Position numbers and translations under genes: made by a program. Below, one piece after another: positions 943-26,925 of a DNA stretch of 30,727 nt. The DNA comes from a virus: UHGV virus genome UHGV-0157886; one strand, given 5' to 3'. The first letter of the stretch is position 1. Each line of letters opens with the position of its first letter. A model generated the notes under the pieces. That model worked only from the letters and a program-made list of their open reading frames with translations, was not told the DNA's origin and did not search any database.

Positions 943-957
943 TTACCTTTCGGGTAA
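943..957. promoter_or_regulatory. Operator-like inverted repeat TTACC-N5-GGTAA (site 1), upstream of the tail fibre gene
   Basis: Perfect TTACCtttcgGGTAA with A/T flanks; an AACCACATA box lies at 903-911. Same motif recurs at the other transcription-unit heads. Confidence 0.5.
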
Positions 958-994
958 TTTGCAAAACGTGCTGGATAGCAAACAAATTATTTGA

Positions 995-1014
995 TACTGT
1001 ATAAATATACAGTT
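995..1014. promoter_or_regulatory. LexA (SOS) box overlapping a promoter
   Basis: TACTGTATAAATATACAGTT matches the E. coli LexA consensus TACTGTATATATATACAGTA at 18 of 20 positions, with CTGT-N8-ACAG intact. TTGATA at 991-996 is a possible -35. Lies 20 bp upstream of the ORF at 1034. Confidence 0.7.
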
Positions 1015-1033
1015 ATTGCATGGAGAAGATAAG

Positions 1034-1291
1034 ATGCAGCAGTATCACTATCCACTGGAAGACGGATTTACCGAAAGGATCCACACGCCGGGAGGCGTCA
1101 GGTCACTGGTGGAGGGATCGCACTTGATGAAATTACTCCGGGATCTCGATAAGGATGGATTTAATGTCGATGGCCCACTTGCCGAACTGACTGCACTGAT
1201 TAACTACGTCACCAGCTCACAGATGTCTATGCGGGATCTGCAAACACATCTCGACTATTGTGCCGAACAATTACGAAAACAAACCACATAA
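1034..1291 (+). CDS. Small soluble protein (85 aa) under the LexA box; candidate SOS-induced antirepressor
   Basis: ATG at 1034 with GGAGA 8 nt upstream (the ORF-track start at 1016 is a TTG). Plus strand, convergent with the virion operon. Acidic/charged 85-aa product, no TM segment. Function is inferred from context only. Confidence 0.5.
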   Translation: MQQYHYPLEDGFTERIHTPGGVRSLVEGSHLMKLLRDLDKDGFNVDGPLAELTALINYVTSSQMSMRDLQTHLDYCAEQLRKQTT

Positions 1292-1297
1292 AGAAAA

Positions 1298-1313
1298 GGC
1301 CGCGAAAGCGGCC
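1298..1313. terminator. GC hairpin GGCCGC-GAAA-GCGGCC between convergent genes; probable bidirectional intrinsic terminator
   Basis: Perfect 6-bp GC stem with GAAA loop. The minus-strand transcript would be followed by UUUUCUUUA (rc of 1289-1297); the plus-strand U-tract is weaker. Confidence 0.5.
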
Positions 1314-1314
1314 T

Positions 1315-1326
1315 GTGACATGTCAC
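1315..1326. repeat. Perfect 12-bp palindrome GTGACATGTCAC, copy A
   Basis: Identical 12-mer also at 18528-18539 and 20793-20804. Overlaps the stop codon of the 98-aa membrane ORF. Confidence 0.8.
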
Positions 1327-1619
1327 GTTCCTTTTCTGAATGATAGCCGTTCGAAAAATGATGACATTCCACCGCAGACAATAGCAAAGATGATCCCACC
1401 AAAGAAGAGAAGGCCAGCCTGCCACCACTCCCACCGCCATACATCCACAGCACCAACCATACCAACAATCGCTCCAACAAATGGAATATAGCTCACGATG
1501 AAAGCAATGGGGGCTGCAATTATCCAGTGCAATCCCCACCATGATTCAAGCCCAGCCATAATTGCTGCCAACTGAAAAAGACCAACGACGATATAAACAA
1601 TGAATCCTATAGCTTGCAT
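1323..1619 (-). CDS. Small integral membrane protein (98 aa, 3-4 predicted TM helices); holin-like or membrane moron candidate
   Basis: Strongly hydrophobic translation (MQAIGFIVYIVVGLFQLAAIMAGL...). ATG 11 nt after the stop of the preceding small ORF. Followed by the terminator hairpin. Confidence 0.55.
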   Translation of the reverse strand: MQAIGFIVYIVVGLFQLAAIMAGLESWWGLHWIIAAPIAFIVSYIPFVGAIVGMVGAVDVWRWEWWQAGLLFFGGIIFAIVCGGMSSFFERLSFRKGT

Positions 1620-1631
1620 GTAGTCACCTAT

Positions 1632-1805
1632 TTACCCAGTAAAAATCAGAGGCCTCCCCTCAATAAGGCTTGCAACAAGAACTATTCCCTGCACAACAAA
1701 GATGAACCAGCAAATAGCTTGAGTCTGAGGGTTAAGAAAATATTTGTAGCGGTCAATAAATAACAACCCACCAGAAATTATCACACTCAAAATAATTAAA
1801 AACAC
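1632..1805 (-). CDS. Small membrane peptide (57 aa, 2 hydrophobic segments), GTG start; not in the ORF track
   Basis: My translation of the minus strand: GTG at 1805 preceded by AAGGAAG (rc of 1810-1816), open to TAA at 1634-1632. Product (M)FLIILSVIISGGLLFIDRYKYFLNPQTQAICWFIFVVQGIVLVASLIEGRPLIFTG. Below the 60-aa track cutoff. Confidence 0.35.
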   Translation of the reverse strand: MFLIILSVIISGGLLFIDRYKYFLNPQTQAICWFIFVVQGIVLVASLIEGRPLIFTG

Positions 1806-1814
1806 AACACTTCC

Positions 1815-4289
1815 TTATTGCGGAGTGACATCCTGAGGTCGCCACCAGTATGTCTGATTAAACTCTTTCTTCGAACGTTGCTCCATTTTACGCAAATAGC
1901 CTGGTGAAAAATACTCCTGCATCTGGTTAAAGATCATATGATCGAGAGCCGCCTTTAAGTACCAGAGATTCGCACCTGGCATCAAACCTTTCCCCAGCTT
2001 CACCAGATCACCACCAGTCTGCTCACTCTTCCCTTCCACAGCATTTAACGGTATGCCCTGAGCAATCTTCACTACGTCATCAACCAGACCAGCTACCGGG
2101 CCAAGCATCGACGCCAGCGCGCCGCTTCCGTACCTAGTGTGATCTGACAATAAAAAGTCACCGTAAAGGCCAAGACCACCACCTTTCAGTAGAGCACCAA
2201 GCCAAAATTTAGCAGCATCTTCTCCTGTCATCTCGCGAGGATTACGACCAGACGCAAGGTCGTTAAGTTGCTGCGACAAAGCGCCAAGAATGGTCGTACT
2301 GGCAATAAACGTCGCAATATATGCCGCACGCCCACCAGCAGACGGCATACCCATAGCGCGTGACCAGTGACGCATAACCACCGAGATAGGGAACGATTTA
2401 AACAGGAAAACACTTCTCGTTAATTCACCTTTCCATGTTCCACGCTGAATACCAGAACCGGTTATCAGTTGCTCACGTGCTCCCGGTGTAATAACAGCCA
2501 TATCAACTTCTTCAGTTACGGCACCGAGCAGTTTACGCATTGCCTCAAATTTCACGCGTTCAGGCTCACCAAGATGTTTAACTGCTGAATCAGGGATACG
2601 CATAATGCTTTCCGGTGTCAGCATCGTATTATTGCCGTTCCCCCAGTCCTCCTGTTGCGCCAGCTTCCATACGCTCCAGTCTGTGTCAGTAATCCCTTTG
2701 CTTTTCAGGATACGAAAATCAGAATTATCGAGGCTACGAAGGTCTGGTGTCCGTGACACTACTTCTCCCAGGCTTCCAATCATGGTTACGCCATAGGCGC
2801 GCTTGTGCGCATCTGACCATGCTGTAAGCCCACTGGCACGCATTACCGCCGTTGCCGCCCAACGAGACACAGACGGCCCCATATTATCCATCGCCCAGCG
2901 GTTAACGCTGCCAAGTAGAGATTCCATCGCCAGACCAGCGCGGCGCGCCCGCGCAAGTTCTGTACGGTTCGTTGGGTCCATAGCTTCAAGCTGGTTGCGG
3001 AATAACTGGTTCATTGGAAGGTTGGTAACCTTCGCAGACAGATACATGGTTCCAAGATCAGAGAACGATGACAGCAACGCGGATCCGAGTCTGCTGGCAA
3101 CCAGCCAGTTGCGGATATTGTCAGACCATCGCGCGATGTGCGGATTCGCTACAGGCTGTGTCTTTCCGGAAATAAAGTTGTACAGATTCTCTGTGTTGTT
3201 CGCCAGCCGCTCGACTTTACCGGTTTTACTCGGGTTAGCTGTTGCCGTTTCTGCCTTCACCTGATCAAGAAGAGAGCGGAAAACATGATCGGGGTTTGGG
3301 CCATATGTTTCCACCAGTGCAATATCTTTACTGATACCTTCAAGGTGACCGACCATGATTTCCCATAGAGAGCGATCGCCATAAAGTTGCTGATATTGCA
3401 GATAGGAATCTGCATCTTTGAAATGTATCTGTCGTGATGCATTACCACGGTTAGCACGTGCGCCGGAAATTCGCATTCCGGTATCAGTAAGCTTATTCAG
3501 CCCACCAGTAGCGATCGTGTTATAAGCCTCTCCAAGAAATGCAGACAACTCGGCATCGTTCATCAGTTGTCCATCGGCTCGGGTATAATATTTGCGATCC
3601 AGCTTACCTATAACATCGCTAACCCATTTATCTTTTGATACCGCCCCAACCTTTTCCATAGAATGATGTTGAGGGATCCCCCAGTTTTCGAGATAGCCAA
3701 TGTCCCCACCAGCATCATTAAACCGGCGGCGCAGCAGCTCTGTAACTTCTCTCCACGCCTTAGCACCTTTTCTTGCTTTAGCATTGCCAGTATTTTGCCC
3801 TCGCATTTCATATACCAGATCACGCACGCCAGCTTCATCTTCAAACAGGCCAAAAAAGCGAGGATCAACTGCTTCAAATGCCTCCTGCAATTGACTCAAT
3901 GCATAATCACGAGTGGCTTTTGTTCTGGACTCAACAGAGAGGAAATTCGATTTACCGTCTGCATTAAAAGCAATAGTACGGTTAAGAGCGCCAAGTTTCC
4001 CATCAGCCCCTTGATAGCTATTGATAAATTTATCCAATCTCTGACGTGCGGCTATAGTGAGGGCCACACGACGTTTCTTTAATGCCGCTTCTCGCTGTAA
4101 TTCTTCAGATGCCAATTGTGCTGCTCGATATAGCCGCTCTGATTCGGAAAGTTGTCTCCACGACATCGGGTCATCACGAGCAATGGAGCGCATATTTCGA
4201 TAAATGCGGTCTTCAATGTTCTGTATTTCTCGCGCCGTTAACGTGCGCTGCGCCGCCTGCTGAACCGCTTGTATACATTCCTGTCTCAT
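1815..4289 (-). CDS. Internal virion / ejection protein (824 aa), T7 gp15/gp16-class by position
   Basis: Large ORF in a translationally coupled chain after the tail tubular genes. GAGAGG 9 nt upstream of the ATG at 4289. No family recognised from sequence alone. Confidence 0.55.
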   Translation of the reverse strand: MRQECIQAVQQAAQRTLTAREIQNIEDRIYRNMRSIARDDPMSWRQLSESERLYRAAQLASEELQREAALKKRRVALTIAARQRLDKFINSYQGADGKLGALNRTIAFNADGKSNFLSVESRTKATRDYALSQLQEAFEAVDPRFFGLFEDEAGVRDLVYEMRGQNTGNAKARKGAKAWREVTELLRRRFNDAGGDIGYLENWGIPQHHSMEKVGAVSKDKWVSDVIGKLDRKYYTRADGQLMNDAELSAFLGEAYNTIATGGLNKLTDTGMRISGARANRGNASRQIHFKDADSYLQYQQLYGDRSLWEIMVGHLEGISKDIALVETYGPNPDHVFRSLLDQVKAETATANPSKTGKVERLANNTENLYNFISGKTQPVANPHIARWSDNIRNWLVASRLGSALLSSFSDLGTMYLSAKVTNLPMNQLFRNQLEAMDPTNRTELARARRAGLAMESLLGSVNRWAMDNMGPSVSRWAATAVMRASGLTAWSDAHKRAYGVTMIGSLGEVVSRTPDLRSLDNSDFRILKSKGITDTDWSVWKLAQQEDWGNGNNTMLTPESIMRIPDSAVKHLGEPERVKFEAMRKLLGAVTEEVDMAVITPGAREQLITGSGIQRGTWKGELTRSVFLFKSFPISVVMRHWSRAMGMPSAGGRAAYIATFIASTTILGALSQQLNDLASGRNPREMTGEDAAKFWLGALLKGGGLGLYGDFLLSDHTRYGSGALASMLGPVAGLVDDVVKIAQGIPLNAVEGKSEQTGGDLVKLGKGLMPGANLWYLKAALDHMIFNQMQEYFSPGYLRKMEQRSKKEFNQTYWWRPQDVTPQ

Positions 4290-4294
4290 TTAAT

Positions 4295-6097
4295 TTAACC
4301 TCTCAAGAAACACGCCACAGCGACATCAAACAGGCTGGAATCCTGTATTGCCTGCTCACTTTCCATGTTCGCTTCATCCAGTACTTCACGCGCACTGCGC
4401 GATTGTGGATTACCATCATCATCCAGCACGGTGATTATCATGTCAGGTGATTCAAGCAGCGAGTCTTCAGCTATGCGCAGATCAATATCTCCTGCCGGAT
4501 CTGCCATCATCTTTTGTTCTGCCTGTTGCAATATCTTACCGGGCTCAAAAGGAGCTACTTCGTCTGGCGTCCTGACCTCTGCTGTTTTATAGAATGAAAC
4601 AGCCTGAGCATTAAGTTCACTTTCTGCCTGCTGTCTCCGAGCCAGTTCTGCTCGAGCTTCAAAAAACTGACCGCCAGGCTCGTGCGGTGCCAACGCGTTA
4701 CGGGAAAATTCCAGGCGTTCTTGTGCCTGCCGGATTCGTTGGTCAATATCGCGAAGTCTGACCTGTTTATCTGATCGAGCACGAGACAAAGCTTTACCGC
4801 TGCCGGTTGGCTCTTCTGCAAGAATTTGTGCGCGCTGTTCAGTGAGATTTTCAATAATTCGTTGGCTATTAGCGATTTCAGACTGGTAAACCTGTCTATC
4901 GCCACGCGGCAAAAGCTGCGCGGCCTGTTCTTCAAGCAACCGATTTTCTATAGCGCGCGCCGTTACTCCATCATCTACAGATGACAGAGCCTCATTAACT
5001 GCCTGAGACAGCAGACTCTTACGCCCAGGAATTTCACTGAAAGATGCAGGCTCAACAATGCTGGCAACGTCTACAGGTCTCCCTTGGCTAACATCAGACA
5101 TAGCTTTTCGCAGAGCCTGAATGTGAGAATTGCGCGAAAGCACGTTGATCGGCACGCCGGGAGAAATATCAATTTCAGCATGATGAGCGGCATTCGCCGC
5201 CAGTGCAGCATCGACATCAACTGGTGAAAAATTGGGGGTGCTTGTAGCCTCACCGCGAGAGTTAATAAATCTGCCGACACCACCAAACGCCACCCCAAGA
5301 ACAGCATCAATAGCAATTGCCTGTCGATCCAACACATCATACTGGTTAGCCATTTCGCTATAGCCACCATCACGAAGCGTTTTTGCAGTAAGCCCACGCT
5401 GTGCCATACCGAACGCAATATTTGTACCTGCGGCATAGGCAATATCTGGCGTTGCACGTACTGCTGTTGCTGCGGCGCGTCGCACTGAACTTTCACCCGT
5501 CCGCGCAAGCTGAGACGCCACACCTTCCGCCAGCGCACCACCAGCACGTAACCCGAGGCTCATAGGGATCAGTGTTCCGGCACCAGCAGTAATACCCTGC
5601 ACTAATCCCGCTTCCTGCGCCGTCCTGAAATCAACACCCTGTGCTGTCAGCCGTTCAAACTCAGAAAAACCCTGTAGCGAAGTTACCGCCGCAGCACCTC
5701 CGACCGGACCACCGAGCGTTGTACCGATAACAGCCTGCCCGCCCATATCGAACAACCCATAAAGAACCTGCCCGGCGGTTCCGGTTGTCGCGGCATCAGG
5801 CGTCAGCCGCTTAACCTGCTGCTCTGCTAGTTTTCTCTGCTCGGCAATGTATGAAACTGAAGTGTCATTGAGCGAGGTGTTTTCGTTAACAAACTGAGCA
5901 ATCGGGGATACGATTTTATCCATCCCTGCCCAGAGCAACTGATCTGGCTTTGCCACCAGCCCGGAGTACAAACCAGACAATGCCGCTCCTACAGCATTGT
6001 CGAAAAAGCCAACATCGCTGTTAAAGCCAACTGGATTTGATGCTGCTTCGTCAAGCTGCTGATTCTGGTTTACTGGATTAAGGCCAAAGTAACTCAT
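4295..6097 (-). CDS. Internal virion / ejection protein (600 aa) with Gly/Ala-rich hydrophobic N-terminal half and coiled-coil C-terminal half
   Basis: Start ATG overlaps the upstream stop (ATGA at 6094-6097). Gly/Ala-rich segments typical of membrane-inserting ejection proteins. Confidence 0.55.
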   Translation of the reverse strand: MSYFGLNPVNQNQQLDEAASNPVGFNSDVGFFDNAVGAALSGLYSGLVAKPDQLLWAGMDKIVSPIAQFVNENTSLNDTSVSYIAEQRKLAEQQVKRLTPDAATTGTAGQVLYGLFDMGGQAVIGTTLGGPVGGAAAVTSLQGFSEFERLTAQGVDFRTAQEAGLVQGITAGAGTLIPMSLGLRAGGALAEGVASQLARTGESSVRRAAATAVRATPDIAYAAGTNIAFGMAQRGLTAKTLRDGGYSEMANQYDVLDRQAIAIDAVLGVAFGGVGRFINSRGEATSTPNFSPVDVDAALAANAAHHAEIDISPGVPINVLSRNSHIQALRKAMSDVSQGRPVDVASIVEPASFSEIPGRKSLLSQAVNEALSSVDDGVTARAIENRLLEEQAAQLLPRGDRQVYQSEIANSQRIIENLTEQRAQILAEEPTGSGKALSRARSDKQVRLRDIDQRIRQAQERLEFSRNALAPHEPGGQFFEARAELARRQQAESELNAQAVSFYKTAEVRTPDEVAPFEPGKILQQAEQKMMADPAGDIDLRIAEDSLLESPDMIITVLDDDGNPQSRSAREVLDEANMESEQAIQDSSLFDVAVACFLRG

Positions 6098-17793: not shown

Positions 17794-17883
17794 ATCAATG
17801 ACTCCGTACGCAATTAAATTATTACCAATTTAACCACATATGATTTATTTATCGTAGATAGTTGACATTTAACGCACAAATTA

Positions 17884-17898
17884 TTACCTTTCAGGTAA
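17884..17898. promoter_or_regulatory. Operator-like inverted repeat TTACC-N5-GGTAA (site 2) in the portal / tRNA intergenic region
   Basis: Perfect TTACCtttcaGGTAA. TTGACA at 17862-17867 sits 17 bp upstream on the plus strand; AACCACATA at 17832-17840. Confidence 0.5.
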
Positions 17899-18220
17899 CT
17901 AAAGAGTTCATTCCGGTTGCTAACCTGACTGGCTTGTCGTTAAATTGAACAGGTGGAGTGAGCTTTTGTTTTGAGCAGTACGGCGTATGGCACATGCGCC
18001 GATAGCGGTCTGGATACGTTTAAGGGGCACCCTCCCTTGCTCGGGCAAACGAACCAGGTAGCCGGAATGTGCAAGTCGAGCGGTTTTATTCCGCGCACGG
18101 GGATTCACCATCCCGGCGATTCGGTGTGACGCCTCGGAAGAGACGAGGGTACAACGATGAGAGCATTTATGGAGCCGCGACAAAGTGTGGCGCCTTAACA
18201 GGCTAAGTGCTCTCAGCGTT

Positions 18221-18297
18221 GTGGCATTAGCTCAGTTGGACAGAGCAACCGCCTTCTAAGCGGTTGGTCGCAGGTTCGAATCCTGCATGCCACGCCA
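18221..18297 (+). tRNA. tRNA-Arg, anticodon UCU (reads AGA), CCA encoded
   Basis: Manual cloverleaf: acceptor GTGGCAT / ATGCCAC, D-arm GCTCAGTTGGACAGAGC, anticodon stem ACCGC / GCGGT with loop CTTCTAA, T-arm GCAGG-TTCGAATC-CTGC, discriminator G, CCA at 18295-18297. Confidence 0.85.
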
Positions 18298-18527: not shown

Positions 18528-18539
18528 GTGACATGTCAC
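18528..18539. repeat. Perfect 12-bp palindrome GTGACATGTCAC, copy B
   Basis: Identical to copies at 1315-1326 and 20793-20804. Lies just downstream of the large terminase stop. Confidence 0.8.
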
Positions 18540-18613: not shown

Positions 18614-20089
18614 TTAAGCATAGGGATCGTAATCTGTAATGGCCTTGCCTTGCTGGTTCTGCTGACCGGGAATTCGCAGACGCTTCGACACCGGGAAAGC
18701 AAACGTCAGCAGTAGCGCATCGCCTTTACCCGGCGAACGCCCAAGCCGCTCCTTGATATCTTCCTTCGGTTCGATAACGATTTTACCGTCCACGCGAACT
18801 TTGTACTCTGCCGCCGACAGGTCGTCCGCTGTTTCCTGGTCATCCAGCATGCCGCCCAGCCTCAGCCATGTCTTGCATGCATTGAACATCTCCCCACGCT
18901 TGTTAAGCATCTGCGGGTCAGTGGACGCACCGCCGAACGGAACAAGTTGCCATGTACGTCCCCAGCCATCACCGATTGACTTCAAACCGGTTCCGTAACC
19001 GAAGTCGATGAACACCGCGTCAGCCTGGTACTGGTCTTCAAAGTCAGCGATACGCTTCGCCATAATCAGATCGTCGGTTGTCTTGTTGCCAGTCCATAGC
19101 ACCTTACTGTGCAGCCCCTGCCGCAGGTATATCACCGCGTCATCAACGCCTGAATATGCCGGGTCAACACCGATTATCACCGGAGCATGCGCCACCTGCG
19201 CAGCGGTTACCACCCGTTTCATTGCCTCATCAGTAAGACCGGTAGGGATAAACTGCAATTCAGATGCATCAGGGAATATGCCGCGCACACGGATTTTAAC
19301 GAAGTCGCTGTCTTCCCCGTAGTCATCAACCCATTTCTGCAACTGCTGTTTGTTAGTGCCTTCCACCGTCCGGCTGTCAATCTGCGCAGTTTTCCAGCGG
19401 TGTTTATATTTGCGGAAACATTCACGGAATCGCCCGGTATTACGCGTCGGGTTTCCGAACGCCACCCAGATAATCTCAGTGTCTTCGTCCGTTAGCGCAC
19501 CTTCGGCAACTTCCCACACCAGATCCGCAATATTCGACGCTTCATCGAATACCACGATGATGCGTTTGCGCTCGTTGTGTAGTCCGGCGAATGCCTCAGT
19601 GTTGTGCTCAGACCAGGGGATTGCGTCAGCTCGCCACCGCTTGTCGTGTCCAGGGTCATTGCTGTACATCGCGGTAGCTGTACAGGTAAACCAGTCTTTC
19701 GTGATAGCAAGGTTTGACCACTTGATAATTTCCGGCCAGGTCTTCGTTCGTAGCTGGTTGTCGGTGTTGGCGGTCACCACGACCTTACAATCCTCGCAAG
19801 TGGACATGCCCCAGTTGATCAGCATTGAGATGAATGCGGATTTACCAATACCGTGACCCGAAGCACGTGCCAGCATAAGCGGCTGATAGCGCGTCTCTGG
19901 ATTCTGCAGGTGATCACGTATCTCTCGGAACGCATCAGCCTGCCACTTACGTGGGCCGGTAGCATGTGCCAGTTCAGTCCCCTCTTCCCCCCACGGGAAC
20001 GCATAGAGGGCATAGCCAAGCGGATCGTGAGTGAACCCTGCAATATCCTCGATCAACTGCTCTTCAGGAGATAACGCTGTATCTGTCAC
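18614..20089 (-). CDS. Terminase large subunit (491 aa)
   Basis: Walker-A-like ARASGHGIGKSA near the N-terminus. Size, acidic nuclease-like C-terminal half, and position immediately after the small subunit with overlapping stop/start. Confidence 0.8.
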   Translation of the reverse strand: MTDTALSPEEQLIEDIAGFTHDPLGYALYAFPWGEEGTELAHATGPRKWQADAFREIRDHLQNPETRYQPLMLARASGHGIGKSAFISMLINWGMSTCEDCKVVVTANTDNQLRTKTWPEIIKWSNLAITKDWFTCTATAMYSNDPGHDKRWRADAIPWSEHNTEAFAGLHNERKRIIVVFDEASNIADLVWEVAEGALTDEDTEIIWVAFGNPTRNTGRFRECFRKYKHRWKTAQIDSRTVEGTNKQQLQKWVDDYGEDSDFVKIRVRGIFPDASELQFIPTGLTDEAMKRVVTAAQVAHAPVIIGVDPAYSGVDDAVIYLRQGLHSKVLWTGNKTTDDLIMAKRIADFEDQYQADAVFIDFGYGTGLKSIGDGWGRTWQLVPFGGASTDPQMLNKRGEMFNACKTWLRLGGMLDDQETADDLSAAEYKVRVDGKIVIEPKEDIKERLGRSPGKGDALLLTFAFPVSKRLRIPGQQNQQGKAITDYDPYA

Positions 20090-20682
20090 TGATTACCATC
20101 CTGACGTTCTTTGAGTCGCTTCCTGGCTGCTGCTATGCGATCAGCAATTGTCACATTCACATTAACATCCAGACGTTCTTTGAACGCGTTGACATCAACA
20201 TGCTTACCAATCAGCTCAAGGTTCTTCACCTTGTCAGGCCATTTAATTTTTTTGAGGATTGTCTCTATCGAATCCTCGTTCATGTTCATGATGGTCGATG
20301 ACAGATCAAAGCCACTAAGCGTAGTGCGCCAGATTTTCGGCCACTCACGGATTGGTTTAAGGCTCCCATCGTCGTTGAGGATGTCGATCACGTCCATCTG
20401 GTCGATCTCCACCAGGCGCATGAGAACGTAATCAGCACTGACGCGCATTCGTTTGTTGCGCTCCTCCATCAACTCGGCAATCCGTTTTTGAATGCGTTCA
20501 TCGCGCATCATGACGCTGGCTTTAACTGCCGCTGTATTTGGGGAGAATCCTGCGTTAATCGCTGCCTGAGTCTGGTTTTCAGGCGTTTTGATGTATGACT
20601 GGCAATAAGCCTCCTGCATTGCTGTTAGTGGCTTAAATTGCGTTGATTTGCGTTTATAGGTTTTAGGTTCAGCAGGCATCAT
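20086..20682 (-). CDS. Terminase small subunit (about 198 aa)
   Basis: Basic helical N-terminus, then oligomerisation-like region, directly upstream of and overlapping the large subunit. The ORF-track start at 20760 adds a Thr/Val-rich extension that overlaps the operator repeats and a terminator, so the ATG pair at 20682/20679 (MMPAEPK...) is preferred. Confidence 0.55.
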   Translation of the reverse strand: MMPAEPKTYKRKSTQFKPLTAMQEAYCQSYIKTPENQTQAAINAGFSPNTAAVKASVMMRDERIQKRIAELMEERNKRMRVSADYVLMRLVEIDQMDVIDILNDDGSLKPIREWPKIWRTTLSGFDLSSTIMNMNEDSIETILKKIKWPDKVKNLELIGKHVDVNAFKERLDVNVNVTIADRIAAARKRLKERQDGNQ

Positions 20683-20691
20683 AACCACCGT

Positions 20692-20721
20692 GGTAATAGT
20701 TACCGTTGTGGTAATAGTACC
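20692..20721. promoter_or_regulatory. Cluster of TTACC/GGTAA half-sites, including a perfect TTACC-N5-GGTAA at 20700-20714, immediately upstream of the small terminase start
   Basis: GGTAAtagTTACCgttgtGGTAAtagTACC: four alternating half-sites. Confidence 0.5.
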
Positions 20722-20723
20722 AT

Positions 20724-20751
20724 GCAAAATAAAGCCGCCATAGTTGGCGGC
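20724..20751 (-). terminator. Intrinsic terminator in the leader of the packaging operon
   Basis: Hairpin GCCGCC-loop-GGCGGC (20734-20751) followed on the minus transcript by UUUAUUUUG. Confidence 0.55.
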
Positions 20752-20792
20752 AGTATCCAAAACCCGTCAAATTCATCATGCATAATCTACTC

Positions 20793-20804
20793 GTGACATG
20801 TCAC
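20793..20804. repeat. Perfect 12-bp palindrome GTGACATGTCAC, copy C
   Basis: Identical to copies A and B. Overlaps the stop codon of the 115-aa ORF upstream of the packaging operon. Confidence 0.8.
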
Positions 20805-21148
20805 ACTATTAATTTCGTTTCATGCCAGCCTTTAGTCACCCAGCATTGCGAGTCACCATTACACGGGCATGAATTAACGGGAACTCTCTCGCCGCACTTA
20901 CCGCAAAGTTTTCTGCTGATCGATTTTATACGCCCGCGCACACGTGCATCATCCTGGCGGATCAGCAGCGCGATGTACTCGGCCATTTCATAGGGATCGC
21001 GACCAGGGCGCCGGGCGGCGCAGTTCCGCGCCAGCATTTCCTGCTCCTGCTTATCCAGCACCAGTTCAATTTTGCGCTCACCGGCGGCGGACTGCCGAGC
21101 GCGCTGCGCGGCTTTGCGTTCTGCGGGGGATTTAGCCACGAATCGCAC
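20801..21148 (-). CDS. Hypothetical protein (112-115 aa) with basic N-terminus and C-terminal Cys cluster (CGKCG...CPCNGDSQC; possible zinc ribbon)
   Basis: GTG start. A second GTG at 21139 has GGAG 8 nt upstream and is the more likely start. High-GC region with competing frames, so the call is tentative. Confidence 0.35.
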   Translation of the reverse strand: MRFVAKSPAERKAAQRARQSAAGERKIELVLDKQEQEMLARNCAARRPGRDPYEMAEYIALLIRQDDARVRGRIKSISRKLCGKCGERVPVNSCPCNGDSQCWVTKGWHETKLIV

Positions 21149-21254
21149 TCCACGCCAGATTGATTAATGACTCCCAGGCAATATAAACCCGGATACCAGC
21201 AGCCAGGCCGAAACCAATCACCATGGCATAAAGCAGAGCGTTGCACTTGTTCAT
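21132..21254 (-). CDS. Small hydrophobic peptide (40 aa, single TM); not in the ORF track
   Basis: ATG at 21254-21252 overlaps the DUF551 stop (TAATG) and has AGGAGGTG 6 nt upstream. Product MNKCNALLYAMVIGFGLAAGIRVYIAWESLINLAWSAIRG. Confidence 0.45.
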   Translation of the reverse strand: MNKCNALLYAMVIGFGLAAGIRVYIAWESLINLAWSAIRG

Positions 21255-22099
21255 TACTTCACCTCCTGCGGTGGTTCCGGTAGCGGCATCCAGTGGGTTA
21301 CGTCATCTAGGATATTTCCTGATAAATACGTGAAAGCTCTGTATTTTTTGTAATCAATTGGATTTACAACCCAGTTCCAATATGCGGCCACGATTTCACC
21401 TTGACTAAATGCCAGTAACATTTTGGTGTCTTCCGGCATTCGCTCACTACAGCTTATCCAACCATCCGGAGTTACCGGAGAGTTGCCAGCGGCCTCGGGC
21501 ATATCCGGACCTTTGCGAATAGCCTTTGCAAGCTCAACAGGGTCATCGTAAAGCCAGTCGCCAGTTTGTGGGTGATTTGCTTCTGCAAGCTGCGCAGCCC
21601 ATTCAAGACCATCTTTTTGACCTTGGAGATAATCAAGCGGCAACTCTTCATGATTACTTGCAGGTTCGGCACTATGAAGCATGGCGGCGCGGCAGGCGTT
21701 CCAGCCTCTCACCTCTGCAATAGCGGCAACAGCATCAACCGCGTACATGCTAAGAGGATTAGGCATTGGTTTTTCTTCCGGTACTACTGGCACTGGAGGG
21801 GTGGCGTAGAGTGGAACTCCTCCCCCTCCACCAGAAAATTCATTGCGAGCGTTATACTCACGACCATCTGCGTCATCACGCATCCACGCCACCGGTTCTG
21901 CTCCCAGTGATGCCAGTGCAATTCGTGCCAGCTCACGCACAACTTCAGGGGGCGCGTGACGGTCATTCAGGTCATCCCACAGACGTAGCATGTTATCGCT
22001 ATCAGGGTTAACATCCTCATTAGTTCCGGCCAGCGCACTAATAACCTCATCGGCTGCTTCAATAATTTTCTGTGCCTGTTCTCTGGTAATAGTGGTCAT
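21254..22099 (-). CDS. DUF551-domain phage protein (281 aa)
   Basis: C-terminal segment DGWISCSERMPEDTK...YWNWVVNPIDYKKYRAFTYL...THWMPLPEPP matches the DUF551 signature as I remember it. Start overlaps the upstream stop (ATGA). Confidence 0.6.
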   Translation of the reverse strand: MTTITREQAQKIIEAADEVISALAGTNEDVNPDSDNMLRLWDDLNDRHAPPEVVRELARIALASLGAEPVAWMRDDADGREYNARNEFSGGGGGVPLYATPPVPVVPEEKPMPNPLSMYAVDAVAAIAEVRGWNACRAAMLHSAEPASNHEELPLDYLQGQKDGLEWAAQLAEANHPQTGDWLYDDPVELAKAIRKGPDMPEAAGNSPVTPDGWISCSERMPEDTKMLLAFSQGEIVAAYWNWVVNPIDYKKYRAFTYLSGNILDDVTHWMPLPEPPQEVK

Positions 22100-22305
22100 T
22101 TGTTAATCCTCAAAACTTTATGCCCGGGCGCAAAAGCACGTGTTTTGTCTTTACTTATTCGCCACCCGTCTTTACGGGCCTCTTTTGCACAACCAGACCA
22201 TGACGTACCGATATACTCACCGAAGTCTGGCACTGGATATACACCTTCCGTACACTGGCGGCAGTCACAATAGAGATGCATGGTGTAACTTGCGGCAATA
22301 GCCAT
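22096..22305 (-). CDS. Small Cys-rich hypothetical protein (69 aa)
   Basis: ATG at 22305 with AAGGAG upstream (the track start at 22338 is less likely). Confidence 0.4.
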   Translation of the reverse strand: MAIAASYTMHLYCDCRQCTEGVYPVPDFGEYIGTSWSGCAKEARKDGWRISKDKTRAFAPGHKVLRINK

Positions 22306-22306
22306 A

Positions 22307-22792
22307 TCATTCTCCTTTGATGCGAATGCCTGTTGCAATGCTGTTTATGATGCTGTCAGTGCATGGGGTAGAAAGCTGGGCATCTCCAGCAATTTTCATG
22401 ACCTCAACATCTGCATATCGAATACCGAGGTGTATCAGACCGGCTATGCCTGACTTAAGCCGAGCATTTTCCATAAATAGAACTTTTGCCCGCTGTTTTT
22501 CTGCTTCAAGCTCAACGCGCAGCTTCCCTACCGTTAGCGCAATATCCTCGTTCTCCTGATCGCGGCTTTTGATGTATTGCAGGTTTCTTTCCCGTTCATC
22601 CAGCAGTGCCAGCACGGTTTCTGGTCCGGTCAGAAATTTGAAGGCGTTGAGCGCATCAATATCCACACCGTAATCTTTAAGTTCCTGTTCACTTAACAAG
22701 TCATCATCAGCTGGCAACATTAACAGGCGTTCCATTGCTGGAATTGCACGTTCCGCCACCTCACGCAGTGCCTGATAATCAATCTTGCTCAC
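22307..22792 (-). CDS. Ea22-like (ead) early protein (about 162 aa)
   Basis: GTG at 22792 with GGAGG 6 nt upstream, overlapping the upstream stop (GTGA). Contains IDYQALREVAERA and LLDERERNLQYIKSRDQENEDIALTVGKLR, which I recall as Ea22-family motifs. Confidence 0.5.
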   Translation of the reverse strand: MSKIDYQALREVAERAIPAMERLLMLPADDDLLSEQELKDYGVDIDALNAFKFLTGPETVLALLDERERNLQYIKSRDQENEDIALTVGKLRVELEAEKQRAKVLFMENARLKSGIAGLIHLGIRYADVEVMKIAGDAQLSTPCTDSIINSIATGIRIKGE

Positions 22793-23352
22793 TGGTTGCC
22801 TCCTTTGCGAATCTGTTCCGCCCATTCTTCAAGGGATTTCTCCGCATATTCACCGGACAGGCCATCAATCGGATGCGGTTCATTAGCCAACTCTTCTTTC
22901 GCTGACAAAATCATGCGTGTAACGTCGAAAACTTCACGCAAAGACTTATTGATAAATCCGTGATTGAACGCAGCAGCAAGACGGCTTGCGGTGTAGTTAA
23001 TCCCCTCGTTGCGTGCCTCCGCACGTACTTCAGCCAGAAAAGCATCGGTGGCTGGCATATTTCCTGTTGCCTTCATGGCCTCCAAAATAACCAGAACGCC
23101 ATCTCTCCCAATCTCCTCGCAGATGACCTCGGTGCTGTCGCCAACAACATCGCAAAATGCCTGAACTGCTTTACGAGCCAGCTCATTCTCCGCCGCCAGC
23201 GCATTAGCACGCACCAGTTGCACTTCCAGTTGCGTTGCCAAATCGCTGATCAGCTTTGCTACACTGCGCATATCAACGGCACCACATTCAGCTTTCAGTT
23301 CCGAAGCCATCTCATGCCCGGCGGCAACTAACCCTTTGATATTACCGTCCAT
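22789..23352 (-). CDS. Hypothetical early protein (187 aa), helical
   Basis: GAGGG upstream of the ATG at 23352. No family recognised. Confidence 0.45.
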   Translation of the reverse strand: MDGNIKGLVAAGHEMASELKAECGAVDMRSVAKLISDLATQLEVQLVRANALAAENELARKAVQAFCDVVGDSTEVICEEIGRDGVLVILEAMKATGNMPATDAFLAEVRAEARNEGINYTASRLAAAFNHGFINKSLREVFDVTRMILSAKEELANEPHPIDGLSGEYAEKSLEEWAEQIRKGGNQ

Positions 23353-23413
23353 CTTTACCCTCGCTTATCCACATAACTTATTGATTACATTGATAACTAA
23401 AAAGATCGTCGAT

Positions 23414-23758
23414 TCAGAACTCTTCGATGTTCCAGCCACCACCTGCTTTCTTTGGTTTAACCGTTACCCCGATGATTCGGAACGGATACTGATCTGCGGC
23501 GACTTTGGTTTTCACCCTGGCGTCGTCGGTCCAGAAACCTTTCACTTCGTGCAGTTCCATCTCGCCGGTGGCGAGCATCACAGCAAAATCGGGCGTATAG
23601 AACGTGTTGTCAGCTAACCGAAGCTTGATACCCTCAAATCGATACCAGACGATTTCTCCTGCACGTTTACGCAGCTCAAGGTGCTGGCAATACGCAGATT
23701 CTGTTTTGTTCATCTGGCCTGTTTTGAGTCGACCAAGAGCCTGTATCTGTTTTCTCAT
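23414..23758 (-). CDS. DUF1064-family phage protein (114 aa)
   Basis: Size and motifs (YCQHLE...GEI..Y.FEGIKL...YTPDF...EVKG) fit DUF1064 as I remember it. Located just after the replication genes. Confidence 0.5.
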   Translation of the reverse strand: MRKQIQALGRLKTGQMNKTESAYCQHLELRKRAGEIVWYRFEGIKLRLADNTFYTPDFAVMLATGEMELHEVKGFWTDDARVKTKVAADQYPFRIIGVTVKPKKAGGGWNIEEF

Positions 23759-23761
23759 GAT

Positions 23762-23838
23762 TTACCTCTGAGGTAATTAAAAACCACATAAGACACGAAA
23801 TCAATAGATTTTAGAATATTTTATTACCTAACAGGTAA
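23762..23838. promoter_or_regulatory. Two perfect TTACC-N5-GGTAA sites (23762-23776 and 23824-23838) flanking an AACCACATA box (23782-23790) and a minus-strand TTGATT-N17-TTTAAT promoter-like element
   Basis: The proximal site overlaps the Shine-Dalgarno sequence (GAGG) of the DUF1064 gene. Confidence 0.5.
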
Positions 23839-23875
23839 TTGTCGAGGCGTAAAAAAATGCGCTATCGCGCTGGTA

Positions 23876-24676
23876 TTACTTGATAAATCCTGCCGCCTTT
23901 CCCCGCCTGTATTCCTCCATCAGCCACTGCGCCGGTGTTATTCCCCCAAGGGTGGCGGCGTTAGGCATGCACCCGAAACTTCGCCCTGGTGGATGGTAAA
24001 CGTCTCTCCCTGTGTCCGGAGGCGTACTCATGGGCTCTGGCTTTGCCTGTATGCTGATCACCGGATCGGGTATCTGCTGTCCGGAAGCCACCTTTTTCGC
24101 CCAATCATCGAGCAGCCTGCGTGCGTGTTTCTCAACCTCAATCTCGCTAAGCTGGCGCTGATACATTGCACGGCGGGTATCACATACGACCCAGTACATA
24201 ACCGGATGTCGCCACGGGAATCTTTCGGGACCACCAGGATATAAACTTTTTTCCTTGCTGTACCGGTGAAACTCCGCCATCACATCGTCAATGGTGACGC
24301 CAAGAACCATCTTGCTGTCTTTGCACCACTTGATAAATTGCCCTGGAGACGGCCAGAACGGAGATTCACTGGCGCGGGCGTGGCGCATACCAGCAGAAAC
24401 CTGTTCACGGGTTCGGATCCCCCCTTCGGCAAACGCAGCAATCCACTGCTGTTTTGCAGCAACTTCCTGCTCTGGCGTCTTCAGGTTGGTTACCACTGCC
24501 GCCGGAAACAGTTGTTTCAGCTGTTTAAAAAGGGCATCAACAAGCCTCTCTGCTGACATGTTCACCACATTGTCATTGTTGACGTACTGATGCTCATAAC
24601 CTGACATGCGAGAAAGGGCTTCTCCGTCACGGTTTTGTATCGCGGTAAAAACGTTGTTCACAAGAAATCCTCCCAT
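23876..24676 (-). CDS. Replication protein P-like helicase loader (lambda P family)
   Basis: LFPAAVVTNLKTPEQEVAAKQQWIAAFAEGGIRTREQVSAGMRHARASESPFWPSPGQFIKWCKD aligns by eye with lambda P (LATFPASLANRDQNEVNEIRRQWVLAFRENGITTMEQVNAGMRVARRQNRPFLPSPGQFVAWCRE). Exact start uncertain; overlaps the 3' end of the O-like gene. Confidence 0.75.
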   Translation of the reverse strand: MGGFLVNNVFTAIQNRDGEALSRMSGYEHQYVNNDNVVNMSAERLVDALFKQLKQLFPAAVVTNLKTPEQEVAAKQQWIAAFAEGGIRTREQVSAGMRHARASESPFWPSPGQFIKWCKDSKMVLGVTIDDVMAEFHRYSKEKSLYPGGPERFPWRHPVMYWVVCDTRRAMYQRQLSEIEVEKHARRLLDDWAKKVASGQQIPDPVISIQAKPEPMSTPPDTGRDVYHPPGRSFGCMPNAATLGGITPAQWLMEEYRRGKAAGFIK

Positions 24677-25455
24677 GCTTCAGGGCTGTTCCAGTGCGGA
24701 ACGTTGTTATCAGGTAATGTTGATTGCTTCTGTCTGCTAATCTGCAGCCGCCTTGCCAGCTTCTGCTCCCACTGTGCCTGATGGTATGCCTTACCCTCAG
24801 CCATCCAGTAAATTCTGAACTCTGCAAGTTCCTGTGCCGTTGGCAGACTGTCCAGGTAGATCCCCTGCAATGAGCTTTTCCGAAGAAAGTCATCTGATGG
24901 CTGCCATTGTTCATGCATGACAAATTTGCCTAATTGCCCTGGCCCACCAGGAGGAACAAAGTTATTCATCACGGCGTTGTTTGCTCCGGGGTCATGAGGC
25001 ACAGAATCCCCGCTTTTTGTCCTGCTCTCCCTCTCTTGGTTAAATGACTGGTTATATGACTGGTTCTGGATCCCGTTTTTGGGATCATTCAACATCCCGT
25101 TTTTGGGATCATTCAACATCCCGTTTTTGGGTATATTCCCGTTTTCGGGTTCATTGCCCCCCTCCCGGTTGCCTTTAATGTTCCCGTTTTTGGTTATATT
25201 AAGAGAGAAAACCCGCACTCTTTTTGTCGCTCCCTTTCTCTCTCCGGTATCTGAAATAAGCCCCATTTTCATGAGCGATATAAGCCCGGCCTGCACGGTT
25301 TTTTTATTCAGGCAAGTGTCTTTAACGAGGCGTTCTATGCTGGGGTAGCAGAGGTTATATTCATCGGCTCTGTCAGCCATCGAGAGCAGTATGAGCTTTA
25401 ATGATGAGCTACCTGGATCTGTCTCCCAGGCCCAATCTGTTGCATGTCTGCTCAT
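24658..25455 (-). CDS. Replication initiator, lambda O-like (N-terminal winged-helix domain), with origin iterons inside the gene
   Basis: N-terminal LKLILLSMADRADEYNLCYPSIERLVKDTCLNKKTVQAGLISLMKMGLI matches the phage replication-initiator HTH pattern. The repeated peptide NGNIPKNGMLNDPKNGMLNDPKNG is encoded by tandem DNA repeats, as in lambda O/ori. Confidence 0.7.
   Translation of the reverse strand: MSRHATDWAWETDPGSSSLKLILLSMADRADEYNLCYPSIERLVKDTCLNKKTVQAGLISLMKMGLISDTGERKGATKRVRVFSLNITKNGNIKGNREGGNEPENGNIPKNGMLNDPKNGMLNDPKNGIQNQSYNQSFNQERESRTKSGDSVPHDPGANNAVMNNFVPPGGPGQLGKFVMHEQWQPSDDFLRKSSLQGIYLDSLPTAQELAEFRIYWMAEGKAYHQAQWEQKLARRLQISRQKQSTLPDNNVPHWNSPEAWEDFL
25071..25200. repeat. Tandem direct repeats (iterons; about 24-bp unit TCCCGTTTTTGGGATCATTCAACA, 2 perfect and about 3 degenerate copies); probable replication origin
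   Basis: Copies at 25071-25094 and 25095-25118 are identical; degenerate copies follow through about 25200. A/T-rich stretch adjacent. Confidence 0.65.
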
Positions 25456-25470
25456 GATTAATCTCCGCTA

Positions 25471-25671
25471 TCAGTTTGAGTGTTGTGGGGAGGAATTAAT
25501 CATGATCTGCTTAATCTCTGCCCTGATGCGACGGTTTGATTCCATGGTGCACTCAACACAGTGTCCGTTGTAAACCCAGCGTTCACTGTCATGTCCGTGC
25601 TTACATGGTTTTCCGGTGTAGTAGCGTTTAAGTCCGCGCTTTGCGGCATCAATACGTGTAATGATTTCCAT
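25471..25671 (-). CDS. Small Zn-ribbon-like protein (66 aa; CxH...CxxC) in the position lambda gives to cII
   Basis: ATG at 25671 (MEIITRIDAAKR...). The longer track ORF starting at 25734 has an implausible hydrophobic extension. Not CII-like by sequence. Confidence 0.4.
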   Translation of the reverse strand: MEIITRIDAAKRGLKRYYTGKPCKHGHDSERWVYNGHCVECTMESNRRIRAEIKQIMINSSPQHSN

Positions 25672-25751
25672 GGTAAGCCCTGTTATTAGTATTGGGATTA
25701 CGGTTATTTTGTGCTGACACAAAAAAAAGATCAACCATATTTGGTTTTTTA

Positions 25752-25766
25752 TTACCTTTGAGGTAC
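25752..25766. promoter_or_regulatory. Operator-like site TTACC-N5-GGTAC (one mismatch), site 4
   Basis: TTACCtttgaGGTAC, between the post-cro terminator and the replication operon. Confidence 0.4.
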
Positions 25767-25770
25767 GAAT

Positions 25771-25800
25771 AGATATGAAAAGACCGCCGGATGGCGGTCT
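25771..25800 (-). terminator. Intrinsic terminator just downstream of cro (tR1-like position)
   Basis: 8-bp stem AGACCGCC / GGCGGTCT with GGAT loop; minus transcript continues UUUCAUAUCU. Confidence 0.6.
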
Positions 25801-25821
25801 ACAGAGGGTTGTGGCTGGATA

Positions 25822-26052
25822 TCATGAGTAGAAGAAGTATGCCAGTTCTGCTTTTGAGCGCAGCCATTGTCTTGATTTACAGGCTTTAAAAAGCCCATCC
25901 ATCAATACCTTACCTGGCATTTTGCGCTTACCTGTTAAGTGAGTCTGGATATAGTGACTCGTCGTTCCGGCTTCCTGTGCGAAGGCTTCACGCTCATCCG
26001 GAGTAAGTGCAAGCCAGTGCTTTTTGAAATCGAAATGTCCGTTATCGCTCAT
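25822..26052 (-). CDS. Cro-like small regulator (76 aa), divergent from the repressor gene
   Basis: Small basic protein with a putative HTH (FAQEAGTTSHYIQTHLTGKR). Transcribed divergently from the CI-like gene across an operator cluster. Family not recognised with certainty. Confidence 0.45.
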   Translation of the reverse strand: MSDNGHFDFKKHWLALTPDEREAFAQEAGTTSHYIQTHLTGKRKMPGKVLMDGLFKACKSRQWLRSKAELAYFFYS

Positions 26053-26088
26053 AGCTATTGCCTGATATTTATTTCAGATAATAAATAT

Positions 26089-26151
26089 TCACCTATAAGG
26101 TAACAAAAATCAAGGATAGTTACCCATGAGGTGCATTTACCTGTTGGGTAA
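26089..26151. promoter_or_regulatory. Immunity operator cluster: three 15-bp inverted repeats (26089-26103 TCACC-N5-GGTAA; 26120-26134 TTACC-N5-GGTGC; 26137-26151 TTACC-N5-GGTAA) between cro and cI
   Basis: OR1-3-like arrangement in the 154-bp divergent intergenic region. Half-site TTACC/GGTAA is shared with the sites elsewhere in the genome. Confidence 0.6.
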
Positions 26152-26206
26152 TATTGCTTTAAATTGAATCATCTTCTGATTCAGATATGAGGCGATTTTC
26201 CAGAAA

Positions 26207-26791
26207 ATGAAAAGTATCCAGGACGTCCGCAGGCAAAATCTCAACGACTTGATCGACCGTGAATTCAATGGTGTTCAGACGCGGATGGCAGAAAAACTTG
26301 GAACTCAGGCAAATCTGGTAAACCGCTGGGCTCTTGGCAAGAAGGTTATCGGCGACCAGGTTGCACGAAAAATTGAAGCTGCCGCCAATAAACCACGTAA
26401 CTGGCTTGATATCGATCGCTCGCTTTCTCAGGAGGGTTTTCAGCCTGTCGGACCAAGCGACATTGGTCAGCTGGCGGCTCACAACCTGGAACGCTGGATG
26501 AGCGAAAGCCGCGACCTTTCAACACAGGGAAAACTTCACCGCGCATCCGGCGTAGCCCAGGTGACAATCAGCCGCCTGTTAAACAATGAGGTCAGCGTTT
26601 CCATTTCCACCCTGGAGAATGTTGCATCCGCATTCGGGCGTCACGGATATGAATTACTGATTCACCCGCACGACCCTGCGACTATCAACTATGACCGCTC
26701 GCGCTACGCATTGTTACCCGAAACCGAGAAAGCAAAGATCGAAAGTTACATTGAATTTGTCATCAACCAGAACGAAAAAAATAAACAATAA
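26207..26791 (+). CDS. CI-like repressor (194 aa) with two HTH-like segments and no S24 peptidase / autocleavage domain
   Basis: HTH_XRE-like segment QTRMAEKLGTQANLVNRWALGKKVIGDQVARKI and a second HTH-like segment ASGVAQVTISRLLNNEVSVSISTLENVASAFG. No Ala-Gly/Ser-Lys protease motifs. No Shine-Dalgarno sequence (possibly leaderless, like lambda cI from PRM). Confidence 0.55.
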   Translation: MKSIQDVRRQNLNDLIDREFNGVQTRMAEKLGTQANLVNRWALGKKVIGDQVARKIEAAANKPRNWLDIDRSLSQEGFQPVGPSDIGQLAAHNLERWMSESRDLSTQGKLHRASGVAQVTISRLLNNEVSVSISTLENVASAFGRHGYELLIHPHDPATINYDRSRYALLPETEKAKIESYIEFVINQNEKNKQ

Positions 26792-26812
26792 AACTATAGT
26801 TTTCAGCAAGTA

Positions 26813-26836
26813 AGCCGCCTCATGGCGGCTTTTTTA
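26813..26836 (+). terminator. Intrinsic terminator after the repressor gene
   Basis: Hairpin AGCCGCC-TCAT-GGCGGCT followed by TTTTTT. Confidence 0.7.
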
Positions 26837-26848
26837 TTGCCATCAAGA

Positions 26849-26925
26849 TTACCTTATGGGTAATTTTTTTAACTCATATCTATTGACATCAAACCAAATA
26901 CGCATAATCATTACCCCAACGGTAA
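26849..26925. promoter_or_regulatory. PL-like early-left promoter region: TTGACA -35 (26883-26888) flanked by two perfect TTACC-N5-GGTAA sites (26849-26863 and 26911-26925)
   Basis: Operator / -35 / AT-rich -10 region (CATAATCA) / operator arrangement directly upstream of the first early-left ORF. The -10 spacing is ambiguous. Confidence 0.5.

Follow-up and report, generated by a model that had tools for sequence, protein, structure and literature searches.

Predicted Rep operators at the heads of early and late transcription units in an Escherichia coli Uetakevirus prophage

RESULTS

The prophage and its immunity genes

The 30,727-nucleotide virus genome UHGV-0157886 (here called the window, meaning the whole stretch of DNA that was analyzed) carries repeated copies of one hyphenated palindrome, TTACC-N5-GGTAA, in which two 5-bp half-sites are separated by any five nucleotides. 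The early region of the window is ∼97% identical, over most of the part compared, to the E. coli Uetakevirus phages phiv142-3, PAS61, phiV10, ZX5, and TL-2011b, and its portal protein shares 80% identity with the counterpart in Salmonella phage epsilon15. Sequence likeness places the window among the Uetakevirus prophages of E. coli, in the epsilon15/phiV10 group. The gene map was drawn from open reading frames together with the annotations of phiV10 and epsilon15; 7.1% of the window is non-coding, and most of the structural and rightward-early genes lie on the minus strand. Every promoter assignment given here is a prediction from sequence, and the operators are predicted sites. The genes of the immunity system and the candidate regulators are as follows.

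ATG at 838, minus strand: tail fiber gene, continuing past the left end of the window
995-1013: LexA box TACTGTATAAATATACAGT, with a perfect CTGT-N8-ACAG at 997-1012, overlapping the putative ant promoter
1034-1291, plus strand: ant, a small antirepressor homologue (phrog_450, E = 1e-47)
20801-21139, minus strand: candidate late regulator of 112 amino acids, last gene of the early-right operon (phrog_536, "transcriptional regulator")
25822-26052, minus strand: cro-like small regulator that opens the rightward early operon, a homologue of gp39 (assigned by its position and a match to phrog_35, "transcriptional repressor," at E = 9e-13)
26207-26791, plus strand: rep, encoding an N-terminal helix-turn-helix (HTH) domain and a C-terminal tetramerization/Ant-binding domain

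The product of rep matched the Rep repressor of phage SPC32H over its full length (PDB 5d50_A, E = 4e-42, residues 1 to 190, phmmer). The repressors of phiV10 and ZX5 are 100% identical to it, and epsilon15 gp38 is 42% identical. A Pfam search with Rep returned only HTH families and no S24 autocleavage domain, and the C-terminal domain matched PDB 5d4z, not a peptidase. The ant gene adjoins the tail fiber gene, syntenic with SPC32H, where ant lies beside the tailspike gene. The LexA box overlaps the putative ant promoter (−35 TGGATA at 972-977, −10 TACTGT at 995-1000) and is conserved in five lineages; because it lies over the putative −10 element, induction is expected to proceed through LexA and Ant, not through repressor cleavage. 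Kim and Ryu are said to have placed SPC32H ant under LexA control in 2013. Taken together, the full-length Rep homologue, the Ant-family gene beside the tail fiber gene, and the LexA box point to immunity of the Rep-Ant type and not of the lambda CI type with an autocleavage domain. An earlier note on this DNA had called the repressor "CI-like," a label that does not suit its mechanism: by homology, this is a tetrameric Rep inactivated by an antirepressor, and its operators are spaced 17, 31, and 62 bp apart.

The palindrome is overrepresented and confined to non-coding DNA

A scan of the window located eight perfect copies of TTACC-N5-GGTAA, starting at 943, 17884, 20700, 23762, 23824, 26137, 26849, and 26911, exactly where the earlier note had placed them. 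The expectation was 0.02 copies, with a maximum of 1, across 100 dinucleotide shuffles. When one mismatch was allowed, 12 copies were found against 0.41 expected, including those at 25752, 26089, and 20682. Of three weaker copies listed previously, those at 25752 and 26089 were recovered as one-mismatch sites, and the copy at 26120 has two mismatches. Non-coding DNA holds all eight perfect copies (P ≈ 7e-10), all but one of the four one-mismatch copies, and the two-mismatch copy at 26120. The sole good copy within a gene (711-725, one mismatch, tail fiber gene) is at about chance level, and the intergenic restriction that had been noticed by eye stands with this exception.

For comparison, we used eight genomes that encode Rep: the window, epsilon15, SPC32H, phiV10, Tyrion, Klebsiella phage BUCT711, a Pseudocitrobacter prophage, and a Citrobacter werkmanii prophage. 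Three structural relatives (Carin1, Vibrio 1.021.A, and phiSG1) lack a Rep gene, and the corresponding locus encodes no heteroimmune repressor either; they were for that reason usable as negative controls only. TTACC-N5-GGTAA was the commonest hyphenated palindrome in all eight Rep-encoding genomes, with 6 to 11 perfect copies in each (10 in SPC32H), and had 0 copies in Carin1, Vibrio 1.021.A, and phiSG1. An origin by chance or as a mobile repeat was ruled out by the statistics, the non-coding restriction, and the syntenic conservation of the sites. The operators and the units that they head are listed below.

26089-26103 (one mismatch), 26120-26134 (two mismatches), and 26137-26151 (perfect): array resembling the lambda right operator (OR), between the cro-like gene and rep
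26849-26863 and 26911-26925: operator pair, 62 bp apart, flanking a promoter resembling the lambda leftward early promoter (PL)
23824-23838 and 23762-23776: operator pair, 62 bp apart, heading the DUF1064/nin-like unit
25752-25766 (one mismatch): operator directly after the terminator at 25800-25781 (minus strand), heading the gp40/replication unit
943-957 (perfect): operator in the divergent region between ant (plus strand) and the tail fiber gene (minus strand)
17884-17898 (perfect): operator between the gp3/portal unit (minus strand) and the tRNA-Arg unit (plus strand)
20700-20714 (perfect) and 20682-20696 (one mismatch): terS operators, between the terminator at 20751-20734 (minus strand) and the small-terminase ATG at 20679 (minus strand)

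Probable operators at early promoters have fixed spacings

In the OR-like array, the centers of the three sites are 31 and 17 bp apart, and the 26089 site is overlapped by a promoter resembling the lambda rightward early promoter, PR (TTGTTA-17-TATTAT at 26106..26078). A three-site geometry of 17 and 30 bp recurs in epsilon15, SPC32H, and C. werkmanii. The three tandem copies between cro and the repressor gene had been likened to OR in the earlier note, and the OR-like character of the array is supported. The PL-like promoter is on the plus strand (TTGACA at 26883-26888, a 17-bp spacer, and the −10 element AATCAT at 26906-26911), and its operators lie at roughly −62 and +1; the flanking arrangement described before is thus supported, with the two sites 62 bp apart. 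The nin-like unit is headed by a promoter-like TCGACA-16-TAAAAT at 23845..23818 and, as judged by eye, a PL-like CTATTGATT-17-TTTAAT at 23804..23776. Its downstream operator, 23762-23776, covers the Shine-Dalgarno (SD) sequence of the DUF1064 gene, which starts at 23758 on the minus strand. The 62-bp spacing (63 bp in one case) was found at both PL and nin in all eight Rep-encoding genomes, despite diverged intervening sequence. The replication-unit site at 25752 has degenerate equivalents in phiV10, in the relative L005, and in Klebsiella.

The same site recurs at late and accessory units

The 943 site forms a conserved island in the window, phiV10, epsilon15, SPC32H, and Klebsiella, while the adjoining ∼33 nucleotides vary. 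It lies ∼57 bp upstream of the putative ant start and ∼71 bp upstream of the putative tail fiber start and overlaps neither core promoter. At 17884, the operator covers the −10 element and start of a plus-strand promoter (TTGACA at 17862-17867, a 17-bp spacer, and TACCTT at 17885-17890). Neither the operator nor the TTGAC element varies among five lineages whose upstream flanks are unalignable. On the gp3 side, plausible starts lie ∼80 bp downstream of the site. The target of this promoter, which points away from the portal unit, is a tRNA-Arg(UCU) gene at 18221-18297 (plus strand); with a Rep operator over the −10 element, tRNA-Arg would be made only after derepression. The leader between operator and tRNA gene contains an ACATGT-centered palindrome (GGCACATGCGCC / GCACATGTGCC-like, 17975-18000), which is kept in Klebsiella, SPC32H, and C. 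werkmanii.

The four-half-site cluster noted earlier before the small terminase gene resolves into two adjacent operators, 20700-20714 and 20682-20696. The latter covers the SD sequence and ends 2 nucleotides before the ATG at 20679; neither operator has a recognizable promoter of its own. Terminators immediately precede the copies at 20682, 20700, and 25752; the one at 23762 is in a leader. An overlap of some copies with SD sequences had been pointed out before and holds for 23762 and 20682. The recurrence of the site at the packaging, portal, and tail fiber boundaries, also claimed previously, was seen in every related genome examined. When we searched for a half-site partner 62 bp from the single late sites, GGTAAT was found at 61 bp (gp3) and 50 bp (tail fiber), with no consistent rule.

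Further copies were observed in relatives. An extra perfect operator lies between ant and the next accessory gene in the anti-late direction in phiV10 (20484-20524), Tyrion (21393), and Klebsiella (17377); in phiV10, a perfect hairpin of 18 bp, GGAGTGCTTATATTTACC-GCAAA-GGTAAATATAAGCACTCC, has this operator as its tip. In epsilon15, a conserved one-mismatch copy, TTACC-N5-GGTAT, is located at 26882-26896, upstream of the integrase gene in a region outside the window. This copy sits in a larger inverted repeat, GACGGTA...TACCGTC, with equivalents in phiV10, the relatives L005 and L006, and Klebsiella.

The half-site follows the N-terminal domain of Rep

The recognition helix NLVNRW is invariant in 21 Rep homologues from at least six genera. 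This invariance, despite divergence of Rep to 42% identity, can account for the use of the same operator across genera. In three siphoviruses (PseuP_224, JBD68, and Turba) and one Acinetobacter phage, the Rep N-terminal domain was all that was detected in common with the Uetakeviruses. In these phages, palindromes flank the repressor gene and keep the geometry of two 5-bp half-sites separated by 4 or 5 nucleotides, and the half-site changes with the helix, as follows.

Uetakeviruses, helix NLVNRW: TTACC-N5-GGTAA
PseuP_224 and JBD68, helix NYISRC / SYVSRC: TTACC-N4-GGTAA, with one JBD68 half-site reading TAACC
Turba, helix AQVSSF: TAACC-N5-GGTTA
Acinetobacter phage, helix AYLSQI: TTAGT-N5-ACTAA

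A homologue search with the Rep N-terminal domain alone returned only fragments, and a GTDB genome scan based on a Rep alignment, whose peptide patterns proved too permissive, gave just two loci. Moraxella phage Mcat9, with a weakly related N-terminal domain and ambiguous half-sites nearby, was left out of the evidence. Whole genomes of Turba and of the Q-encoding phage PseuP_224, both lambda-like, had sites within the immunity region only. Given this restriction, dispersal of the operator is a trait of the Uetakeviruses. From its co-occurrence with the palindrome and the covariation of half-site and recognition helix, the product of 26207-26791, which had been named before as the likely binder, is the best candidate. 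These sequence comparisons argue that the palindrome is one protein-binding DNA site, almost certainly that of Rep.

A second motif and a candidate late regulator

A quasi-palindrome, AACCATATATGGTT, with the conserved half TATnTGGTT, was observed at 903-916, 17832-17845, 23782-23795, 25733-25746, and 26892-26905. Its offsets from the center of the Rep operator are 19.5, 40.5 to 42.5, or 52.5 bp, roughly in helical phase, and are identical in five genomes (the window, epsilon15, SPC32H, Tyrion, and Klebsiella BUCT711). Each Uetakevirus genome contains 6 to 9 copies versus ∼1.3 expected; three of four control genomes had no copies, and phiSG1 had two weak matches. The PL and nin-like promoters have the motif in their spacers; in the putative promoters of gp3, the tail fiber gene, and lysis, it is located at about −27 to −30. 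Compared by eye, none of the consensus sequences of IHF, DnaA, CRP, and FNR fits it. The cro-like protein, the ribbon-helix-helix (RHH)-like/four-cysteine (Cys4) protein, and a PerC-like protein are candidate binders.

A third element, the 12-bp perfect palindrome GTGACATGTCAC, is present in three copies (1315-1326, 18528-18539, and 20793-20804; 0.08 expected at one mismatch or fewer), located 0 to 45 nucleotides from Rho-independent terminators that end units. One copy follows the last virion gene, another follows the large terminase gene, and the third is at the last early gene's stop codon; epsilon15 and Klebsiella BUCT711 have the palindrome at syntenic positions. GTGACATGTCAC may be a termination or antitermination site or a regulator site. 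The protein encoded by that last early gene, 20801-21139, is highly conserved, with an RHH-like N terminus and four invariant C-terminal cysteines (by eye). No Pfam or PDB match was detected for this gp49-like product, and its AlphaFold model was poor (predicted local distance difference test score, pLDDT, of 61).

Together, AACCATATATGGTT, GTGACATGTCAC, and the 20801-21139 gene suggest a further regulatory layer for the late genes. The earlier note had set direct control by one repressor against a Q-type cascade. Sites do stand at the late units; the contrast with a cascade, on the other hand, is weakened by the conserved regulator gene in the early operon and by the second motif, since these elements suggest an extra layer. 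As a tentative proposal, Uetakevirus units could be headed by a two-part module: a Rep operator and a AACCATATATGGTT box for a second phage regulator that would shut early promoters and activate late ones, with the Rep tetramer silencing the whole set as it clamps or loops pairs of operators. The result would be a compact switch acting across the genome, and late genes would be under dual control, by the repressor directly and by a regulator of their own.

DISCUSSION

The palindromes are probably operators through which Rep clamps the early promoters and silences or insulates every unit of the prophage until Ant releases them all at once. This reading starts from observations made here: the sites themselves, how they are spaced and conserved, their confinement to the non-coding fraction, and the correspondence of half-site and Rep-type N-terminal domain. 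Rep, a homologue of the tetrameric SPC32H/epsilon15 repressor, would be inactivated by LexA-controlled Ant and not by RecA-mediated cleavage, and each palindrome would be read by an N-terminal HTH dimer. The Rep tetramer is described as binding palindromic DNA, with DNA-binding dimers that form across dimers and with one tetramer enough for repression (bioRxiv 10.1101/2021.09.07.459249). Because the tetramer contains two HTH dimers, it can hold two operators. At PL and nin, operators about six helical turns apart, one upstream and one over the start, would form a small loop that clamps the promoter. The three OR sites, with spacings of 17 and 31 bp, would cover the divergent region of PR and the repressor promoter, PRM. 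The other operators would mark the 5′ boundary of each remaining unit (replication, terS, tRNA-Arg/accessory, and ant/tail fiber). In a lysogen, the single protein Rep would thereby silence or insulate every unit, and upon removal of LexA in the SOS response, Ant would strip Rep from all sites at once. The cro-like protein may compete for the same operators.

We infer that Rep occupies the sites outside the immunity region, forms loops, and affects late transcription, and several points weigh against this extension. Overexpression of the ZX5 repressor, which is identical to Rep of the window, lowered holin and endolysin mRNA by >99.9% (PMC9782041), a result that cannot separate direct from indirect repression. 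None of the three "late" sites (943, 17884, and terS) overlaps a recognizable late-direction sigma-70 promoter, also when inspected by eye, and the 17884 site overlaps a promoter directed opposite to the portal unit. In epsilon15, a perfect site at 24704 lies ∼20 nucleotides upstream of a serotype-conversion gene; that gene is expressed in lysogens, which makes the site a poor fit to a simple block. Finally, a cro-like protein or another phage regulator would show equal co-occurrence with the palindrome within the Uetakeviruses. As a statement of site placement, the earlier claim that one repressor touches every unit is well supported. Its stronger form, direct repression of the late operons by Rep, is only partly supported by the arrangement of the sites, which overlap no recognizable late-direction promoter.

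It is possible, although doubtful, that the palindromes are real Rep operators but that the copies outside the immunity region control the opposite accessory units (tRNA-Arg/p03, ant, and Bro-type genes in relatives) or anchor long-range loops to OR and PL, with the late genes silent for want of an activator. The position of the 17884 site over the −10 element of the conserved plus-strand promoter leading to tRNA-Arg is consistent with this alternative, as are the 943 site, nearer to the ant promoter than to the tail fiber start, and the extra operators that phiV10, Tyrion, and Klebsiella carry between ant and its anti-late neighbor. Rep is tetrameric, and its tetramerization domain resembles the one behind DNA looping in the plasmid pLS20 repressor Rco (PMC9986798). 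The conserved RHH-like/Cys4 regulator, whose gene ends the early operon, and the second motif at the putative late promoters also speak for this alternative. The terS operators, however, lie outside any divergent region and directly abut the terS ribosome-binding site, the promoter assignments behind the accessory-unit alternative are all predicted, and the long-range loops are hypothetical.

We consider it unlikely that the palindrome is bound mainly by another protein (the cro-like gp39 homologue, a PerC-like activator, the gp49-like regulator, or a host factor) while Rep reads something else. The cro-like, PerC-like, and gp49-like proteins do co-occur with the motif as Rep does within the Uetakeviruses, and Cro-type proteins usually share operators with their repressor. 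Yet the half-site follows the Rep-type N-terminal domain into PseuP_224, JBD68, Turba, and the Acinetobacter phage and changes with the helix, and the palindromes bracket rep as OR and the lambda left operator (OL) bracket the repressor gene. A host factor is improbable because the hosts span at least seven genera, while the Rep-less relatives have 0 copies.

Least probable of all is the suggestion, raised in the earlier note and now disfavored, that the palindromes act as RNA hairpins in leaders (through SD sequestration, processing, or stability): each 17-mer can fold into a hairpin of 5 to 8 bp (−2.6 to −6.5 kcal/mol) and sites 23762 and 20682 include an SD sequence, but the hairpins are weak and without U-tracts, the palindrome has no Rfam match, and it is sequence and not pairing that is conserved, with ACC/GGT invariant (94/94) in a logo of 47 sites whose deviations from the consensus comprise 37 that break a pair, 5 G-U wobbles (42 breaking or weakening in all), and 2 that are compensatory. 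Several copies, moreover, lie upstream of predicted starts (e.g., the upstream PL and nin members at about −62), and in unrelated phages, the half-site flanks repressor genes and varies with the recognition helix.

Repression by Rep at dispersed operators, which we thus favor, is in its site placement not a new system. The RefSeq record of epsilon15 (NC_004775) marks "protein_bind, repressor, lysogeny" features before the small terminase, gp3/portal, tail fiber, and nin-like units, plus three more beside the repressor gene, toward PL. All have the 17-bp sequence ATTACC-N5-GGTAAT of the window and are syntenic with its sites, including the following.

12-27: terS
2931-2947: gp3
19895-19911: tail fiber
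32554-32570 and 32616-32632: PL

Because this public record already annotates the same sites at the same places, the genome-wide operator set was already known and is rediscovered here. Operator pairs 62 bp apart occur in epsilon15 as in the window, and although gp38 is only 42% identical to Rep of the window, the recognition helix and operator are kept. The epsilon15 record carries no annotation for the OR copies at 33341 and 33358, the lysis copy at 24704, and the second nin copy at 35969 found here, and records of the phiV10 type have no repressor-site annotation. We know of no binding experiment on the late sites of epsilon15. The likeness to SPC32H (PDB 5d4z/5d50) extends to a full-length Rep homologue, ant beside the tailspike gene, a LexA box, and the same motif; published work on SPC32H is reported to deal with the switch and with structure rather than with where operators lie across the genome.

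Like lambda, the window has several palindromes between divergent repressor and cro-like genes and a second set at the leftward early promoter. Unlike in lambda, the spacings are 17, 31, and 62 bp versus about 24 bp, the operators flank PL rather than cover it, and Rep lacks the S24 autocleavage domain of CI. In addition to three OR sites, seven more lie outside the immunity region, whereas lambda operators are confined to OL and OR. If Rep occupies every unit head, the prophage would be silenced by direct parallel repression and released in one antirepressor step; lambda late genes, in contrast, are silent only for want of an antiterminator made early. Serotype-converting phages of Salmonella belong to the Uetakeviruses, as do phiV10-based reporter phages and prophages of O157 and avian-pathogenic E. 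coli, and for engineers, a single operator would then serve to tune every operon. In phage P1 (C1) and in Streptomyces phage phiC31 (inverted repeats), one prophage repressor likewise has operators at the heads of many units. Their proteins and site sequences are unrelated to those of Rep, and the late genes of P1 are controlled indirectly, via a C1-repressed activator.

The mycobacteriophage cluster A stoperators (L5 gp71) are similar in that a single immunity repressor is served by many sites, spread over the short gaps between genes in early and late operons alike. By analogy, the terS and downstream nin copies are placed where a block to elongation just after a terminator could occur. Stoperators number about thirty, and the sites of the window about a dozen. 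They are asymmetric 13-bp sites of fixed orientation read by a monomer (PMC9283540), whereas those of the window are symmetric palindromes that, by homology, would be read by a tetramer. If Rep does occupy all of them, the Uetakeviruses would offer, in Gram-negative hosts, a simple parallel to the stoperators of mycobacteriophages.

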